Below are positions 19,389 through 36,458 of a stretch of DNA of 52,243 nucleotides, piece after piece. How positions within the stretch are numbered: position 1 is the first letter of the stretch; each line of letters opens with the position of its first letter. The notes beneath the pieces are model-generated. The model was not told where the DNA came from. It was given only the letters and a program-made list of their open reading frames with translations, and did not search any database. The stretch is from a virus (taxonomy: Duplodnaviria > Heunggongvirae > Uroviricota > Caudoviricetes). The stretch lies in the IMG/VR virus record IMGVR_UViG_2563366937_000007, one strand, 5' to 3'. The position numbers and the translations under genes were made by a program.

Positions 19389-19925
19389 TCAGAAGCGATA
19401 ACCAATACCTGTCATCCAGGTGCCAACTTTCACATCGCCCAATTTGGTGTACTCATAGGATGCGTCAACTACCCAATTGGGTACAGGATTAAACTGAATA
19501 CCAGCACCATATACAACCGAAGTCTTGCTTGAAGAGTCAGAGTATCCCAGAATCGTCGCTTCAGCACGTCCATGCGCTAAACCTATTAAGCCATATGCAC
19601 TGAGGTAATCATTGAAACGATAGGCTGGACCGGCAGCTAGTGAATAGTAATCCAGATCTCCATTTCCAATTTTAGAGCCTGCAAAATAATAATCGTATTT
19701 TTGATTTGTGTACGTAAATGAAGATGCAATGCCCCATTTATCATCCAGCTCATAGCGATACTTAATATTTACCCCTGCTGGATTCTCATCAAGGCTTTCT
19801 CCACCGGCTTTAACATGACTTTGTGCATAACCAGCAGAAATAGTATTCTGCATCAATTCAGCATTTGCAATGCCAGTTGCAAACAAGGCTGAAGCGATAA
19901 TGGTAGTCAACACTGCTTTTTTCAT
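19389..19925 (-). CDS. lom: Ail/Lom/OmpX-family outer-membrane beta-barrel protein
   Basis: 178 aa; signal peptide MKKAVLTTIIASALFATGIANA; alternating beta-strand pattern; ends in RF; AT-rich upstream region. Confidence 0.8.
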   Translation of the reverse strand: MKKAVLTTIIASALFATGIANAELMQNTISAGYAQSHVKAGGESLDENPAGVNIKYRYELDDKWGIASSFTYTNQKYDYYFAGSKIGNGDLDYYSLAAGPAYRFNDYLSAYGLIGLAHGRAEATILGYSDSSSKTSVVYGAGIQFNPVPNWVVDASYEYTKLGDVKVGTWMTGIGYRF

Positions 19926-28342: not shown

Positions 28343-29653
28343 TTAAATCCGAAGTGATGTGACTCTTCCGGTCGGTTTGACAATAGGGAATTGCTTAACG
28401 ATGAAATAACCTCCGGCATCATTCGGGTGATCGTTGCCTGATTTTTTATCAGGCTCCCCCTTATCATCCCAGACCTGTTGCTCCAGAGATTCGGCATATA
28501 CCGGACAACGCTTCACATTAACTTTATAGCGACGCTCGCCATTGGCATTGCAGAACATTGCATTCATTGAGTTAACGCGATCTTTTACTGGCGGGTTCGA
28601 GCTGTTCACCACAACGTTAAAACCAGCCTGCTTAAGCTGGGCTATATCCGTCGTACTTGCGTTACTTGATTTTCTGGAATCTCCGGAAGCATCTGGATAA
28701 ATATAAATCTCCCTCACTTTCCGGTAATCATTCCCGTCATACAGCCAAAAGCGTTCTTTAATGATGCGGATCATATCCGGCGTATCGTAGGCATTGATGA
28801 TTTCAGTTACCGCACATGGAAGCCCCAAACGCAGTACATGGACGATCCCCGCCATCTTTCCAACGTTAAAATCCATCCCAATATAAATCGGCTCCCCTGG
28901 CTGCTCCACTTCTTCGCAATTATTCAGTTTCCGGTCAAACTGATGGTAAACAGTACCACTTGTCAGGTTAGTAAACTGTCCTCGAAGATAGGCTTTAATC
29001 AGCTCTGGAGGGTATGACTCAAGAAGCGAAGGAATGTAATCTGCTGGTAGGTTCTTTTCATTATCGAAAGTAGATGCCTGCACCAGACCATACAGTGAGG
29101 CCAGCTCTGTTTTTTCACGCACGGCTTTAACAAACTGCTCGTAGACAAATTTGAATCCTTCCGGCGTGGTTGTAACGTCAATACCGTTGCGAAGTCCATC
29201 AACCTTATAACGCATACGCGCAATTATCTTGCGCCACGCTGTTCTGGCTTTTTCCTTCGGCAAAATGTCCAGTTCATCCACCAGCGCATTACCAATTTTG
29301 AAACCGACGATCGTTTGCGGCTTCTCCATCGATCTGCAGATAGTGGTTCCCCGATACTGACGTCCGTAATAAAAATGAACCTCTTTATTTCCCTCATTAA
29401 TTTTTACGTTCAATCCCCAGTCAGCAGCAACTTCTTCCACTGTAGGGTAAAAAATATCGCGAATTTGGGGATACGTTGGCGCAAAATATCCCTGATTTAT
29501 ACCAGGATGTTCCCAAATCCCCTTGCATATGCCACCACACCCAATCCATGTTTTACCCGAGCCAAAACCAGCGACATAAGCTTTAAATTTGTGGGGCATT
29601 GAAAGAAATCGCGCCTGAGGCACATTAAGCGTCGGAGAGATCATCTTCATCAC
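28343..29653 (-). CDS. terminase large subunit
   Basis: 436 aa; Walker A AGFGSGKT; acidic nuclease-type motifs in the C-terminal half. Confidence 0.85.
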   Translation of the reverse strand: MMKMISPTLNVPQARFLSMPHKFKAYVAGFGSGKTWIGCGGICKGIWEHPGINQGYFAPTYPQIRDIFYPTVEEVAADWGLNVKINEGNKEVHFYYGRQYRGTTICRSMEKPQTIVGFKIGNALVDELDILPKEKARTAWRKIIARMRYKVDGLRNGIDVTTTPEGFKFVYEQFVKAVREKTELASLYGLVQASTFDNEKNLPADYIPSLLESYPPELIKAYLRGQFTNLTSGTVYHQFDRKLNNCEEVEQPGEPIYIGMDFNVGKMAGIVHVLRLGLPCAVTEIINAYDTPDMIRIIKERFWLYDGNDYRKVREIYIYPDASGDSRKSSNASTTDIAQLKQAGFNVVVNSSNPPVKDRVNSMNAMFCNANGERRYKVNVKRCPVYAESLEQQVWDDKGEPDKKSGNDHPNDAGGYFIVKQFPIVKPTGRVTSLRI

Positions 29654-30719
29654 TCCTTACTCTGGCATCAACCACATTTATATTGATCGCCACAGGTTGG
29701 GGATGTTCATTATCTTCCACCGTTTCGATCTCTTTGCGCAGCTTCTGGTTTTCCATTCTGCGCCGTTCAATTTCCAGTTCCTGTAGCCGCTTATCTGCAC
29801 ATAAAGCCCCGCCAGCAGAAAGCAAACGCAACAATTCACGCCGGGCGGCAGCCTTATCCTCCAACAGGATCTCAACGCCGAATTTTCCGAGCTTTGCCCC
29901 TGCATATAATTGCCGCGCATCCCCATCAAGCAGAGTGGTATCAGCCATATAAAGCTGCCCCGTTCCCTCACCGCAGCACTTCGGGCAATCCGGATTGGGT
30001 ATGGCGTTATCAACAAAGCCGAGGCCTCCATATTCCGGCTCGGGTTTACCATCTCTGGAGGCCTGTGCCGCAGCCTTATCGAATTCTGCAATATCACGCC
30101 ACTGGTAGAGATGATTCTCGCCCCAGCAATAACGGCAGTTAACACGGCGAAATTGTGCCAACTGATTGGGGTCGGCCTGGACAATGGCCATCAACTGGCT
30201 CACCAGTAAATCCAGGTCTGCGGTATAGCGTTTCTGGTACTGATTGCGGAAGTAGCTGATAGCACGATAAACCCTGGCATTTCTAAGCATACGGCTGGCG
30301 TTGCTGTTAGCTGTCGCACCTTGCCCCTCATAACCAGCCAGTCGGTATGCCTCTGTCGGCTTTTTCCCCTGAGCAACCAACATGGCGAATTTTGCCTGCT
30401 GGTCAGAAATACCGAATTCATCGGGGCAGAACGAAATTTCTTCCGTGTCCCCCTCAATCAGGAGTGCATCGGATACAGCCTTTTTTTTCTGAGATTTTCC
30501 GTTCTGCCTTTGCGCAGTCTGCGCAGTTTTTTTTCGCGCACTTTTTTGCGCAGTTTTGCGCATTTCTTTCTGCGCATTTTTCGGAGTTTTTTTGATGTAA
30601 CGACGGGCTGTTGCGTAGTTCAGTCCCCTTGCTTCACACCATGCCACCGGAGATATACCGGAGCGGGTGTATTCAGCAATATACTCCTGCTGCAACGCCC
30701 CCCAGTCCGGTCTGCTCAT
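29625..30719 (-). CDS. putative terminase small subunit / DNA-recognition protein
   Basis: 364 aa; N-terminal helix-turn-helix, basic Lys/Gln-rich segment, Cys-rich segment; position only. Confidence 0.45.
   Translation of the reverse strand: MSRPDWGALQQEYIAEYTRSGISPVAWCEARGLNYATARRYIKKTPKNAQKEMRKTAQKSARKKTAQTAQRQNGKSQKKKAVSDALLIEGDTEEISFCPDEFGISDQQAKFAMLVAQGKKPTEAYRLAGYEGQGATANSNASRMLRNARVYRAISYFRNQYQKRYTADLDLLVSQLMAIVQADPNQLAQFRRVNCRYCWGENHLYQWRDIAEFDKAAAQASRDGKPEPEYGGLGFVDNAIPNPDCPKCCGEGTGQLYMADTTLLDGDARQLYAGAKLGKFGVEILLEDKAAARRELLRLLSAGGALCADKRLQELEIERRRMENQKLRKEIETVEDNEHPQPVAININVVDARVRSDEDDLSDA
30511..30576. repeat. six phased TGCGCA motifs with T-runs inside the putative terS gene (pac-site candidate)
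   Basis: TGCGCA at about 30511, 30520, 30535, 30547, 30557 and 30571, spaced 9-14 bp. Confidence 0.5.
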
Positions 30720-30722
30720 CAG

Positions 30723-30974
30723 TTAGTCCTGATTTTTATCCACCCTGAGTAGTTCGCGCAGAGCAAAGGCATCCCCTTTTCTGGCAAGCTTAAACAATGC
30801 CGCTCGTAACTCGGCTTCACCTTTCGCTCTGCCCTTACGGATGGCCGCATAAAAATCTGTCATTGCTTCCCGATTTTCTTTCAGTCGGTTCAGATCAACA
30901 TCCAGAACGTCAGCGATTTGTTGTGCAGTCATCCGGCACGCTGCCAGAGACTCGACTTTCGAATACGGAATCAT
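30723..30974 (-). CDS. small hypothetical protein (possible DNA-binding)
   Basis: ORF-track ORF; overlaps the end of the upstream gene; start uncertain. Confidence 0.3.
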   Translation of the reverse strand: MIPYSKVESLAACRMTAQQIADVLDVDLNRLKENREAMTDFYAAIRKGRAKGEAELRAALFKLARKGDAFALRELLRVDKNQD

Positions 30975-31842
30975 TTGTCACCCCCATTGATATGCAGGGT
31001 GTCTTCTTCCTGTATTTTTCGTGAAGGATTTTTACTGCAGCGTTGTTCCAGGTGACCTGATGGTGAATGCGTTTATGGCTGGCACCCATCAGTGAGATTT
31101 TTACGCACGACGGCGCATACATGACGGAGTAAAAACTTTTAACGTAGGTTCCGGAATCCAGATACAGCTCGGTCATTCCGCCGCTGTTTTTCTGCGTCTG
31201 TTTCTGCCCTAACTGGACAGCACCGATCGTCATAAACAATTCACCACAGCGACCGAGATTCGTGTACGTATTCACATCCTCGTTAATGCGCCCCATGAAT
31301 GAGAACGGTCGATCAACCGAACAGATAAAGCTGTTCATTGCCTTGCGTTTCACCCACGAAGCATGGCCGCCATTGTCACCAAGAAAATCCCCGCCCTGCG
31401 ACATAGCGATGGAAAGCGCGGGTATTGATTCGTAATACGCCAGCATTTCAGAAAGGATCGCATCCAGTTTCCTTATCGGGAAATAGGCCTGGTCATAGTT
31501 GCGATCCACCCGAAACTGGAACTCGTGATAATCATCATCGAACTGAATGAAGTATTTACACCCGACCAGTTTTGCCAGGTCGAAACAGGCATTACGGGCG
31601 TAAAAAATTGAGCGGCGGTCACCAAAATTATCGGCTTCGTCAAAACGACTGGCAATATCGGCTTTGGAAAATACCAGCACCTGTTCACCAAATTCAGCCA
31701 TGTACTGATGCCGTGTCTTATCTTCATCATCAACAACGATAAAAATTTTCCCGGTATAGCCAGCACGACGCAACGTCCGGTAAGTCAGAACTTTGTCCGG
31801 TCGCCCGTGAGTCAGAATAAAGGCGCAAAAATCATCACGCAT
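30910..31842 (-). CDS. hypothetical protein, 310 aa (YdaY-like by position), with two acidic DxD-like motifs
   Basis: Motifs KIFIVVDDEDK and YFIQFDDDYHEF follow hydrophobic strands; coupled (8-nt overlap) to the ParB-like gene. Confidence 0.45.
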   Translation of the reverse strand: MRDDFCAFILTHGRPDKVLTYRTLRRAGYTGKIFIVVDDEDKTRHQYMAEFGEQVLVFSKADIASRFDEADNFGDRRSIFYARNACFDLAKLVGCKYFIQFDDDYHEFQFRVDRNYDQAYFPIRKLDAILSEMLAYYESIPALSIAMSQGGDFLGDNGGHASWVKRKAMNSFICSVDRPFSFMGRINEDVNTYTNLGRCGELFMTIGAVQLGQKQTQKNSGGMTELYLDSGTYVKSFYSVMYAPSCVKISLMGASHKRIHHQVTWNNAAVKILHEKYRKKTPCISMGVTNDSVFESRVSGSVPDDCTTNR

Positions 31843-32623
31843 ATTCCTCCTCCCCGCTATGCATGATCGCCACCATGCGCTGCGTCATTCGGACAAATCC
31901 ATTTTCAATAGCCTGCTGATAATCAATGATCACCAGCGCCGACTCCTCGAAAAGGCACTGAATTTCAGCGGGGGCATGAGCGTAATAGTCCGCAATTCTG
32001 CTGAAATTAAACACCGTGTGACGTTCTGCCGCACACAGGAGGAATTTCTCAATATCAGGATCAAGGGACGCCGAACGTATCCGGCTGATCAGCTCCTGAG
32101 TTTTCGTATCGTCGTACAGTTCACTGATATCCGGTTTACCGCCCGACGGCTCATAAACAGGCGTATCAATTTTCGTCGTATACGGCTCCTCCTTATTTCC
32201 TGTACCGGGCAAAACATCCGTCAACAGTTCATCAATTTCTGTCGGGCCGAAGCCTGTCAGGGAGACATCAAAATCAGCATTGATTAGGTCCGACAGCTCC
32301 ATCCGCAATAGATCTTCATCCCAGCCAGCATTCATCGGTAGGCGATTATCTGCCAGGCGGTACGCCTTTTTCTGCTCATCCGTCAGGCCAGACAGAACAA
32401 TGACCGGAACAGAATCCATTTTGAGCATTTCAGCCGCCATAACACGACCGTGACCCGCAATAATTTCGCCCTTTTCGTCAATCAGCACCGGATTAGTCCA
32501 GCCGAATTGCTTAATACTTTCTACCAGTTGTGCCACCTGCTCAGTACTGTGCGTCCTGGCGTTGTGCGCATACGGTGACAATTCTTGTAATGGGCGATAG
32601 ACTATCTTTAATTTCTCGCTCAT
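31835..32623 (-). CDS. ParB-like nuclease domain protein (YnaK-like)
   Basis: 262 aa; ParB/sulfiredoxin-type motif IIAGHGRVMAA; position after trkG as remembered for Rac. Confidence 0.65.
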   Translation of the reverse strand: MSEKLKIVYRPLQELSPYAHNARTHSTEQVAQLVESIKQFGWTNPVLIDEKGEIIAGHGRVMAAEMLKMDSVPVIVLSGLTDEQKKAYRLADNRLPMNAGWDEDLLRMELSDLINADFDVSLTGFGPTEIDELLTDVLPGTGNKEEPYTTKIDTPVYEPSGGKPDISELYDDTKTQELISRIRSASLDPDIEKFLLCAAERHTVFNFSRIADYYAHAPAEIQCLFEESALVIIDYQQAIENGFVRMTQRMVAIMHSGEEEYA

Positions 32624-32760
32624 ACAGCCTTGCTTTATGAATAAAACGCACCCCAGCAGCCAGTGCTACTGGGGGCGGAGGTGTTGCTGGTAAAGTTAGG
32701 TATTGGATCAATGAGTGAGTCAATATAATATTAAACTCACAATTATAAATCAGCCATATA

Positions 32761-34218
32761 TTAGGAGCGCCAAAAAAAACCTGAAAACAATATAATAACA
32801 GGATAAATTTCAAGGCGACCAAGAATCATAGCTATGCACATTAAATATTTTGCAATGTCATTAAGCACTCCGAATGACGATGCAGTAGCCCCAAAACCTA
32901 ATCCCATATTATTAATACATGCAGCCACTGTTGCAAATGATGTAAGAAAATCATATCCCATACCATTTAACACCAGTATAAAAAACACCGTGAAGAGAGT
33001 ATAAAGAAAAAAGAAACTCCATACAGACCTCATTACACGATCTGTAACTATCTTCCCTCCTACATTTACACTCAACAACGCTCTGGGATGAGAAAGCTGA
33101 TTTATCTCGTGTTTGCTTTGTTTGAAAAGTATAAGAAATCGAAGTGACTTAATTCCACCACAAGTTGAACCTATACATCCCCCAAAGAAACTTGACAACA
33201 GCAAAAACACTATCGTGTGCGTGGGCCAGTTTGCATAATCCTGCGTAGCTAAACCATTATCAGTGAGCATGGAGCTGGCAAGAAAAAACGAATGAATAAA
33301 ACTTCCATGCAAGTCATACATACCTATATGCCAGACCTGGAAAGAGGTAACAATGATCACCCCTAAGGCTATTAACAGAAAGAAACGAAGTTCAATATCT
33401 CTGATTAAAGGTTTTATCGTTTTCCTGCTAATAACAATATACCAAAGAGTGAAGTTGAAAGCCGATAGCAGGGAAAAAGAACCAGCCACCAGCTCAACCA
33501 AATAGTTATTAAAATATCCGATACTCTCGCTATGAGTTGAGAAACCACCAAGCGAAACTGTGGAAATCCCGTGACAAATAGCATCAAACAAAGGCATTCC
33601 TGCAAGTCTATAACAGACAATACAAGCAATACCTAATAAAGAATAAGTTATCCACAGTGTCCGTGACGTATCGGCCAGGCGGGGAGTGAGTTTGTCATCC
33701 TTAAATGGCCCCGGCATTTCTGACTGATAAAGCTTTGCACCACCAATACCCAATAATGGCAATACAGCAACCGCCAGAACAATAACTCCTAAACCACCTA
33801 TAAAATTTAACTGTGACCGATAGTACAAATATGCCCGAGGTAATGAACTAACATCATCAATTACAGTTGCTCCTGTTGTTGTTATTCCAGAAACCCCTTC
33901 AAACAGAGCATCAATGAACGTTAAATTAAGTTCTGAGTCAATCCATAAAGGGAATGCACTAATAACAGAAAACAAAATCCAAAACATTACAATTATAATA
34001 AACCCATCACGGGTACGTAATTGAATGCCAGATTTCTTAGTTGTATACCACGCTCCGCCACCAATGCAAAAAAATATAACGAAAGTTATAAAGAAAACGA
34101 ACAGGCTTTTTTCTTTATAAAACAATGCTACAACCATTGGTGGCAACATTGAAAGACTATAGAGCCAAACCAGGAACCCACACATATGAGTAACAACTCT
34201 TACATGAGATGTATTCAT
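32761..34218 (-). CDS. trkG: potassium uptake protein TrkG (TrkH family)
   Basis: About 485 aa from MNTSHVRVV...; multi-pass membrane protein; looks AT-rich; the track's upstream M is a TTG. Confidence 0.85.
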   Translation of the reverse strand: MNTSHVRVVTHMCGFLVWLYSLSMLPPMVVALFYKEKSLFVFFITFVIFFCIGGGAWYTTKKSGIQLRTRDGFIIIVMFWILFSVISAFPLWIDSELNLTFIDALFEGVSGITTTGATVIDDVSSLPRAYLYYRSQLNFIGGLGVIVLAVAVLPLLGIGGAKLYQSEMPGPFKDDKLTPRLADTSRTLWITYSLLGIACIVCYRLAGMPLFDAICHGISTVSLGGFSTHSESIGYFNNYLVELVAGSFSLLSAFNFTLWYIVISRKTIKPLIRDIELRFFLLIALGVIIVTSFQVWHIGMYDLHGSFIHSFFLASSMLTDNGLATQDYANWPTHTIVFLLLSSFFGGCIGSTCGGIKSLRFLILFKQSKHEINQLSHPRALLSVNVGGKIVTDRVMRSVWSFFFLYTLFTVFFILVLNGMGYDFLTSFATVAACINNMGLGFGATASSFGVLNDIAKYLMCIAMILGRLEIYPVIILFSGFFWRS

Positions 34219-34355
34219 ATCTAAATATTCTTTCAATTATAACCACCTTGCTGCAATATTATGATTATACTGTATAAAATTTAACCCCTCTTAGATCTTA
34301 CTTCACTGTTCCTTATGAAACAATCATCAAAATGAATCATATTGTAGTTAAGATT

Positions 34356-36304: not shown

Positions 36305-36379
<75 letters not shown>

Positions 36380-36382
36380 ATA

Positions 36383-36458
<76 letters not shown>

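Follow-up and report, generated by a model that had tools for sequence, protein, structure and literature searches.

Overlapping genes for a ParB-like protein and a predicted TAGT-family glycosyltransferase ahead of the terminase genes of an Escherichia coli prophage: a candidate DNA-glycosylation module

The IMG/VR record IMGVR_UViG_2563366937_000007 is a 52,243-nt stretch of Caudoviricetes DNA (the window in the following), in which a gene for a 262-amino-acid (aa) ParB-like protein is followed by an overlapping gene for a 310-aa protein. The whole stretch corresponds to an intact lambdoid prophage of the Rac type from Escherichia coli, with the host genes ompN and uspF at its left end. The locus raises the question of what this pair of proteins acts on. 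A preliminary description of the window had suggested, as a speculation, that the pair may modify phage DNA or act against restriction. According to the analysis presented here, the best-supported reading, held with moderate confidence, is a late-expressed, partner-dependent two-protein module that glycosylates phage DNA. We infer the DNA target, the roles of both domains of the partner, the timing and the benefit.

The transferase and its ParB-like partner

The 310-aa protein matches the Pfam family PF20691 (TAGT) with an E-value of 3.9e-34 and a score of 118.8 bits against a cutoff of 27.5, over profile positions 4–205 of 205. TAGT stands for TET-associated glycosyltransferases, a family that was reportedly defined by Iyer et al. 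in 2013. The protein also matches PHROG 842 (E 5.6e-103), which is labelled T-even beta-glucosyl-HMC alpha-glucosyltransferase. Genes of the hydroxymethylcytosine (hmC) pathway were not found in the prophage, and the label is valid at the family level only.

An AlphaFold2 model was built from an alignment of 60 sequences with 60–82% identity (the close alignment), and a single-sequence version (pLDDT 44) was discarded. The model has pLDDT values above 90 over most of residues 1–225. The Foldseek comparison that had been suggested for the 310-aa protein gave only GT-A glycosyltransferases among the significant matches in the PDB (ColGalT1, GnT-I, SpsA, LH3, GalNAc-T2 and glycogenin). Against BFVD, a collection of predicted viral structures, the matches are TAGT-domain phage proteins (E 6e-25, TM 0.73–0.80) and, more distantly, a T4-like 'beta-glucosyl-HMC-alpha-glucosyl-transferase'.

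The preliminary description had noticed two hydrophobic-strand-plus-acidic motifs, IFIVVDDEDK and FIQFDDDYHEF, and guessed from them a metal-dependent transferase. The motifs correspond to residues 33–42 and 98–108, and both end beta strands of the model (residues 32–38 and 97–102). In the close alignment R14, D38, D41, D102–D104, Y105, N187, D189, V190 and Y193 are invariant, and E188 is conserved in at least 90% of the sequences. The same active-site positions are kept in a second alignment of about 40% identity. Because D38, D41, D102, D103, D104 and Y105 are invariant in the close alignment, the acidic motifs are not chance runs. As judged from conservation, FDDDY is the invariant DxD motif of the family, and IFIVVDDEDK is the conserved acidic end of strand 2. 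The JGT-like phage GT-A enzymes have the active-site signature R...DDD...EDY/F (bioRxiv 10.1101/2023.12.21.572611), which is reproduced here by R14, D102–D104, E188–D189 and Y193 (E-D-V-N-T-Y). The guess was borne out to this extent: by sequence, modelled fold and motifs, the 310-aa protein is assigned as a TAGT-family metal-dependent (DxD) GT-A glycosyltransferase.

The last ~25 residues of the protein form a non-conserved tail, which overlaps the next open reading frame (ORF). No hydrophobic segment was found (maximum Kyte–Doolittle 19-aa windows of 1.08 and 1.25), so no transmembrane segments are predicted. PADLOC gives no defence-system assignment for the transferase. Some TAGT homologues (P0272, P0313, P0248, P0251, P0286 and P0268) are fused to extra domains. 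The N-terminal extensions are a second GT-A-like domain or a P-loop kinase-like domain, and the C-terminal fusions are S-adenosylmethionine (SAM)-methyltransferase-like and sulfotransferase domains. The idea that the N-terminally extended homologues are ParB fusions was ruled out by the nature of these extensions. The fusions suggest elaborate glycan tailoring in some TAGT relatives.

The 262-aa partner begins with a nucleotide-binding domain (NBD) of the ParB/Srx type. Spo0J (1vz0) is matched over residues 7–93 (E 1.8e-5). The NBD also matches the PADLOC model MTase_II (positions 13–148, E 1e-38) and phrog_498, a ParB-fused DNA methyltransferase (E 3.7e-51), and it conserves G57-H-G-R60, which contains the Box II GxxR arginine, and L-A-D-N at 90–93. 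These matches assign the NBD to the ParB type that is fused to phage DNA methyltransferases. The full-length ParB model TIGR00180 gives 38.1 bits, below its cutoff of 58.45, and covers residues 11–94 only; no ParA was found in the prophage, and the 262-aa protein has no helix-turn-helix (HTH) match in Pfam. For these three reasons the protein is classified as a member of the ParB/Srx fold, and not as a partition ParB. The nucleotide bound by a ParB-fold domain is not predictable from sequence (PMC12704722).

The C-terminal part of the partner is a module of another kind. It starts with the linear motif Y-T-x-K-I-x-x-P-x-Y-x-P, and an acidic helical domain with the pattern FL..AA.RH.vFNY..IAeYYaHA..Q.LME.SALVIID..AI.NGY follows, in which F, R(H), A, Y, D, A and G positions are invariant. 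The module matches no Pfam family, and a profile search against the PDB gave coiled-coil noise only. Sequence conservation suggests that a short helical segment and a disordered linker connect the NBD with the C-terminal domain. The partners are acidic (median isoelectric point 4.5), and the TAGT proteins are basic (8.5). The module profile collects 1298 proteins; the best 120 of them are nearly all stand-alone, unannotated proteins of 128–149 aa. That the partners of ~130 aa found beside other transferases consist of the ParB NBD only was ruled out, as their domain coordinates correspond to the C-terminal module only.

The two genes had been described as overlapping, and they share 8 nt. The junction reads ...GGGGAGGAGGAAT-ATG-CG-TGA, with the AGGAGG Shine–Dalgarno sequence within the last codons of the ParB-like gene. 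The transferase gene starts inside the end of the ParB-like gene, behind a Shine–Dalgarno sequence, the classic arrangement of translational coupling.

The first gene is named ynaK in RefSeq, and the Rac prophage of strain K-12 retains only an 87-aa remnant of it. In NZ_CP042899, which is 100% identical over the 2-kb region, ynaK is annotated as a pseudogene fragment of 258 nt, 'missing C-terminus' (window 32366–32623, compare L001 21667–21924). The 262-aa ORF is nevertheless intact there; the pseudogene call probably arose because the K-12 remnant served as the annotation reference. In other genomes the gene is annotated at full length, as a 'ParB/Srx family N-terminal domain-containing protein'. 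In some database proteins (P0197, P0238 and P0230; window 19389–19925, minus strand), the N-terminal ~165 residues of the ParB-like protein are joined to Lom/Ail, tail-fibre or terminase fragments. Such joined proteins mark deletion junctions like that behind the K-12 remnant, and Rac-type prophages decay recurrently at this place.

Pairing, genomic contexts and setting

Related loci were collected with a divergent alignment; the window protein alone gave only near-identical E. coli prophages. The scan covers 151 loci, namely 80 diverse IMG/VR loci and 71 loci of species-representative genomes. In the IMG/VR loci, where the transferase is ~40–45% identical to that of the window, the partner is found in 76 of 80, and in the other four the transferase gene starts less than 300 nt from the contig end. 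Most of the 80 loci have stop/start overlaps of 4–26 nt. The partner is found in 66 of the 71 genome loci, the other five being contig-end cases or TAGT fragments. The module thus adjoins the transferase in every assessable locus, and the pairing is to all appearances obligate and ancient.

The preliminary description had taken the ParB-like protein as the partner of the 310-aa protein. The coupling agrees with this, but the constant companion of the transferase, as far as these loci indicate, is the C-terminal module and not the ParB fold; this element had been missed. A module-only partner of ~120–150 aa is present in 24 of the 80 viral loci, and the large Vibrio phage SRILMA has one too. 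In a metagenomic phage (L150 9272–10840) the whole partner is fused in frame to the transferase, giving a 522-aa protein with ~5 residues between the two parts. In other variants the order is ParB-TAGT-TAGT, two module-TAGT pairs stand in tandem, or a single module precedes as many as four TAGT paralogues. On one 128-kb phage contig (L170 10001–14559), one stand-alone module, four TAGT paralogues and a cytidylyl/adenylyl-transferase directly follow a split family A DNA polymerase.

The hosts include Enterobacteriaceae, Bacteroidota, Bacillota (including Veillonella and Lactobacillus), Desulfobacterota, Chlorobiota, Planctomycetota, Acidobacteriota, Actinomycetota and Saccharibacteria. The haloarchaeal virus HHTV-2 also has the pair, with identities to the window of 42% for the transferase, 47% for the module and 40% for the NBD; toward this virus the module is better conserved than the NBD. 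The TAGT homologue of the T4-like Aeromonas phage Aeh1 is without the partner module. Among 5426 complete E. coli genomes, 867 (~16%) contain at least 80% of the 2-kb pair region. The region of the small terminase subunit TerS (query 29625–30900, TerS and the adjoining small ORF) is found in 905 E. coli genomes, 849 of them at 80% cover or more, and no cassette swaps at this slot were found in E. coli. Thus, both regions appear to travel together. All of the 80 sampled E. coli copies of the transferase gene are intact, and the ratio of nonsynonymous to synonymous polymorphism (pN/pS) is 0.12 for the transferase, 0.14 for the ParB-like gene and 0.16 for TerS. These results indicate that the pair is under purifying selection.

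Two genomic contexts recur. With the ParB domain, the order in temperate-type genomes is ParB, TAGT, TerS and TerL (the large terminase subunit). This order spans the unrelated terminases Terminase_3, Terminase_4/TerL_ATPase, Terminase_6 and GpA, and the pair is often the first after a contig or genome end. Where the ParB domain is lacking, a family A DNA polymerase (PolA) and a sliding-clamp homologue flank the module and its one to four TAGT genes, with primase and helicase genes nearby. According to gene content, both contexts concern DNA. In two loci a ParB-methyltransferase gene immediately precedes the pair. In some loci NDP-sugar epimerase/dehydratase, cytidylyl/adenylyl-transferase (nucleotidyltransferase), O-methyltransferase-like, sulfotransferase and P-loop kinase-like proteins are found as neighbours or fusions; they are predicted to be enzymes that make or tailor sugar donors.

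A radical SAM enzyme of ~320 aa is encoded in eight of the 80 loci, among them L110, L113, L130, L138 and L146 (L146 10866–11834), either between the partner and the transferase or directly after the transferase. Its best matches in NCBIfam are MoaA-like proteins, SPASM maturases and viperin, all far below the cutoffs. In the phages carrying it, this enzyme may generate or modify either the acceptor or the sugar. As a deazaguanine (QueE) or base-hydroxylating source of an acceptor it was rejected, since it has no NCBIfam equivalog match and is absent from the window.

In the window, all tail, head, portal and terminase genes are on the minus strand. The pair had been placed directly upstream of the packaging genes, and this is the order observed (Table 1): ParB-like gene, transferase gene, a small HTH ORF, TerS and TerL, with ends that overlap or abut. 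The small HTH ORF covers the last 23–65 nt of the transferase gene, and its stop is located 3 nt short of TerS. The RefSeq version of this ORF has 69 aa (30723–30932). It matches just the middle part of the terminase-small-subunit family phrog_309 and may be a split or accessory terminase subunit that recognises DNA. Because of this match, its status as a RefSeq coding sequence, and its absence beside the pair in other phyla, the ORF is assigned to the packaging genes and not to the conserved pair.

Table 1. Positions of the pair, its domains and motifs, and adjoining features in the window
Feature	Position	Strand	Remark
ParB-like (YnaK-like) gene, 262 aa	31835–32623	-	ORF list
ParB/Srx-type N-terminal nucleotide-binding domain (predicted), residues 1–135	32219–32623	-	PF02195, 29.3 bits, cutoff 26.3
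TAGT-partner module, residues ~145–262 (~115 aa)	31838–32191	-	Constant neighbour of the TAGT clade
Translational-coupling junction	31835–31851	-	AGGAGG, 3 nt (AAT), TAGT ATG 31842–31840, ParB TGA 31837–31835
TAGT-family GT-A glycosyltransferase gene (predicted), 310 aa	30910–31842	-	RefSeq 'GREB1-related protein', WP_001204032.1
TAGT conserved core, residues 1–285	30988–31842	-	Homologues ~285–290 aa
DxD metal/NDP-sugar motif D102-D103-D104 (in FIQFDDDY)	31531–31539	-	Invariant in the close alignment; at least 90% conserved in the second alignment
Small HTH ORF, 83 aa from the first ATG	30723–30974	-	phrog_309 'terminase small subunit', positions 145–218, E 8.3e-23
TerS	29625–30719	-	PF03592 Terminase_2
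TerL	28343–29653	-	Terminase_6N and Terminase_6C; overlaps TerS, co-directional
Terminator-like hairpin	32651–32674	-	10-bp stem, 7 GC pairs, then TGCGTTTTAT (T-run)

Further to the right in the prophage are the lysis genes, a trkG moron, a Q-like antiterminator and replication genes, recE/recT and the integrase. The terminator-like hairpin, with an RNA fold of -28.9 kcal/mol (z = -3.2), is located ~25 nt upstream of the ParB start and separates it from trkG. The hairpin probably shields the pair from trkG transcription in the lysogen, and it suggests that the pair is transcribed only by antiterminated late transcription. The trkG gene, a potassium-transporter moron (32761–34236, minus strand; PF02386, E 1e-144), lies between the lysis genes and the ParB-like gene, and the GC content is lower around it (0.417 for 32001–34000). 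The interval from the Q-like antiterminator region to the lysis genes contains two phage tRNA genes, Gly-TCC and Thr-TGT (36305–36458, minus strand). At the corresponding place, the almost identical prophage of NZ_CP042899 has tRNA-Arg and tRNA-Ile; the early/late junction is therefore mosaic.

Candidate targets of the transferase

The mechanism that we propose is as follows. The pair would be expressed with the late (packaging) genes as a self-contained glycosylation module. The transferase would be active and soluble, and would use a host NDP-sugar and a divalent metal bound at D102–D104. The C-terminal module of ~115 aa may dock onto the transferase or activate it, and the ParB-type NTP-binding domain may bring the enzyme onto double-stranded DNA (dsDNA) or open the DNA. 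Where the ParB domain is absent, the phage replisome would supply the access to DNA. The enzyme would most likely act on phage DNA that has just been replicated and is about to be packaged, and would thereby probably protect it from host nucleases. We favour DNA as the target because of the DNA-centred contexts, the methyltransferase-type ParB domain, and the precedents of ParB-fold NTPases required by DNA-modifying enzymes. The conservation across domains of life, as seen with HHTV-2, implies a universal substrate. According to a paper that cites it, an earlier suggestion by Aravind was that ParB directs modification machinery during packaging, which likewise speaks for DNA.

Several points weigh against DNA glycosylation. 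The characterised DNA-acting TAGT members all need 5-hydroxymethylcytosine (5hmC), 5-hydroxymethyluracil (5hmU) or a sugar already on DNA. No TET/JBP protein, hydroxymethylase of the thymidylate-synthase type or DNA methyltransferase was found in the whole prophage, nor was any of these found in the genome of Lactobacillus phage phi jlb1 (38 kb, complete). When 115 representative neighbours from the 80 loci were compared with Pfam, the families matched by at least two of them did not include TET_JBP, and TET_JBP is absent within ±10 kb in seven Pfam-labelled loci. By its gene neighbourhood, then, the window transferase seems to lack the contextual feature that named the TAGT family. As the prophage is without an enzyme that produces 5hmC or 5hmU, either the chemistry is new for the family, or the target is not DNA. 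This acceptor question is the main weakness of the DNA-glycosylation reading. Further, the characterised phage GT-A DNA glycosyltransferases are reported without mention of a partner protein, and the obligate partner may point to another substrate. A protein glycosyltransferase, GREB1 (PMC7968844), belongs to the family. Direct binding of DNA by the module itself is unlikely, judging from its acidic composition. No report of DNA modification was found in the literature searched for any phage carrying the pair, and the search gave nothing describing the partner module, the obligate pairing, or TAGT, ParB and phage together. The original proposal that the pair modifies phage DNA therefore stands in part: a family acting on DNA and contexts concerned with DNA speak for it, whereas the missing 5hmC/5hmU maker and the possibility of a protein target, as with GREB1, speak against it.

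A tentative alternative, the strongest of those considered, is that the transferase glycosylates a protein, most economically its own partner on Tyr or Thr of the disordered motif Y-T-x-K-I-x-x-P-x-Y-x-P. Once glycosylated, this acidic protein would serve replication or packaging, or would act as an anti-defence decoy; other conceivable targets are TerS and the portal or capsid proteins. The family member GREB1 attaches O-GlcNAc to a protein (PMC7968844), and glycogenin, which glycosylates itself, is among the structural matches. The motif ahead of the helical domain contains two tyrosines conserved in at least 90% of the sequences. An acceptor encoded by the module would explain the self-sufficiency and the conservation from bacteria to archaea, with no need for a hydroxymethyl-base pathway, and a glycan could be built by the TAGT paralogues, which occur in arrays of one to four. 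However, the linear motif may equally well be a docking arm, and nearly all characterised relatives act on DNA. A protein target also leaves two features without explanation, namely the fusion of the module to a ParB domain of the DNA-methyltransferase type and its polymerase/clamp position.

If DNA is the target, the acceptor could be ordinary. We regard it as doubtful, below the protein target in plausibility, that the pair is a self-sufficient system glycosylating a canonical base, or another hydroxyl or amine of DNA, without prior hydroxymethylation. In that case the partner, with its ParB NTPase and its module, would make the site accessible.

A conventional hydroxymethyl-pyrimidine glycosyltransferase is quite unlikely. 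Its acceptor would come from elsewhere: a co-resident prophage or a host enzyme might supply it, for example, or a superinfecting T-even phage with its hmC DNA. Otherwise the gene would be an orphan with little function after the loss of TET/JBP. The family name and the PHROG label agree with such an enzyme. According to the NEB survey, ~65% of phage glycosyltransferase contigs are without a neighbouring 5mYOX or ThyS gene, and distant partners are possible; the lytic-type contigs were inspected only within ±10 kb. On the other hand, complete temperate genomes are without a gene of the TET/JBP type, and the clade is under purifying selection. To our knowledge, E. coli makes no 5hmC or 5hmU. 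Across the 151 loci the transferase is accompanied by its own partner and not by TET/JBP, and a late-operon place behind a terminator does not fit an exclusion function expressed in the lysogen.

Finally, many prophage GT-A enzymes remodel surface glycans, and TarP is the top PDB structural homologue of phage GT-A enzymes (NEB preprint, bioRxiv 10.1101/2023.12.21.572611), but a seroconversion enzyme for the cell envelope (O-antigen, teichoic acid) or a sugar-metabolism moron, beside a separate partition or regulatory ParB-like gene, is highly improbable here: transmembrane segments are absent (19-aa window maximum 1.25), no GtrA/GtrB-like or flippase partners were found in the prophage, there is no ParA or parS-type partition context, the obligate translational coupling and the fusion show a direct partnership with the ParB-like protein, and the pair is common to Gram-negative, Gram-positive and archaeal viruses.

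Phage DNA glycosylation described so far is always a second step on hydroxymethylated pyrimidines, and here the predicted catalytic machinery occurs without the first step. If DNA is the target, the pair would represent a new acceptor chemistry and a third enzyme class dependent on ParB-like proteins, with a bearing on restriction evasion, type IV restriction enzymes, sequencing artefacts and enzyme tools. If ordinary DNA is the acceptor, a new DNA modification would be present in the prophages of about one sixth of sequenced E. coli, and in viruses of many phyla and of haloarchaea. If the partner protein is the target, the pair would be a new phage protein-glycosylation switch. Either outcome would explain a part of the ~65% of phage glycosyltransferase loci without a recognisable base-modification partner, and would assign a function to ynaK, whose 87-aa K-12 remnant is uncharacterised. 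The best-studied bacterium carries the module in a prophage that is easily induced, and the module recurs in many bacterial phyla and one archaeal virus.

Comparison with known systems

The nearest relatives of the transferase are the TAGT/JGT-like phage enzymes (5mYOX- or ThyS-associated), the base-J glucosyltransferase of trypanosomes and the T6-type enzymes. They share the Pfam family, the GT-A fold and the active-site signature with the window protein. The T6-type beta-glucosyl-HMC alpha-glucosyltransferase is a TAGT member (PMC13390438), and phage glycosyltransferase contigs generally have ParB and terminase genes nearby (NEB survey). The window phage differs from these systems in having no maker of 5hmC, 5hmU or a first sugar. 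Its clade also has the obligate partner module of ~115 aa, which is not mentioned for the characterised enzymes.

GREB1, the human O-GlcNAc transferase, has a homologous glycosyltransferase domain (PMC7968844), and the RefSeq name of the window protein refers to it. GREB1, however, is a eukaryotic multidomain protein of 1949 aa that acts on ER-alpha, and it has neither ParB nor the partner module. The Gtr-type glycosyltransferases of seroconverting prophages are membrane-associated and have partners of the GtrA/GtrB type; the window protein has neither feature.

The preliminary description had also held that ParB-like proteins are often partners of DNA-modifying enzymes, and precedents for this exist in three systems. 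In the ParB_N-DNA methyltransferase fusions (phrog_498, MTase_II; PMC12704722), the N-terminal part is of the same ParB subtype as the window partner. The genes of these fusions have the same kind of position before the terminase, and in the two loci mentioned above both kinds stand side by side. In the window the ParB domain is joined to its enzyme through a non-covalent adaptor module (L150 being the exception), and the predicted reaction is the transfer of a glycosyl and not a methyl group.

The second precedent is ParB176, the activator of the thymine dioxygenase 5mYOX176. The activation is cognate and specific, the dioxygenase acts post-replicatively, and it is on dsDNA that it requires ParB176 (O'Toole et al. 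2026, PMC13229309). In ParB176 a disordered linker connects the N-terminal NTP-binding domain with a C-terminal domain, and a DNA-binding domain is not obvious (PMC13229309). At the level of sequence, the layout of the window partner looks the same. The enzyme here is a glycosyltransferase and not a dioxygenase, and TET/JBP was found neither in the window nor recurrently in the related loci. While ParB176 needs both of its domains, the window-type C-terminal module occurs also without a ParB domain.

The third precedent is the 7-deazaguanine modification by DpdA and DpdB (PMC10164549). This system, too, has two proteins, and its catalytic subunit does not act on dsDNA without a ParB-fold NTPase. 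DpdB has a DGQQR-type ParB fold, and its C-terminal domain is unlike that of the window partner (PMC10164549). DpdA is a base-exchanging transglycosylase, and Dpd is part of bacterial restriction–modification and not of a phage late operon. By analogy with these systems, the pair would work most like the ParB-dependent dioxygenases and DpdAB, but with an enzyme of another class.

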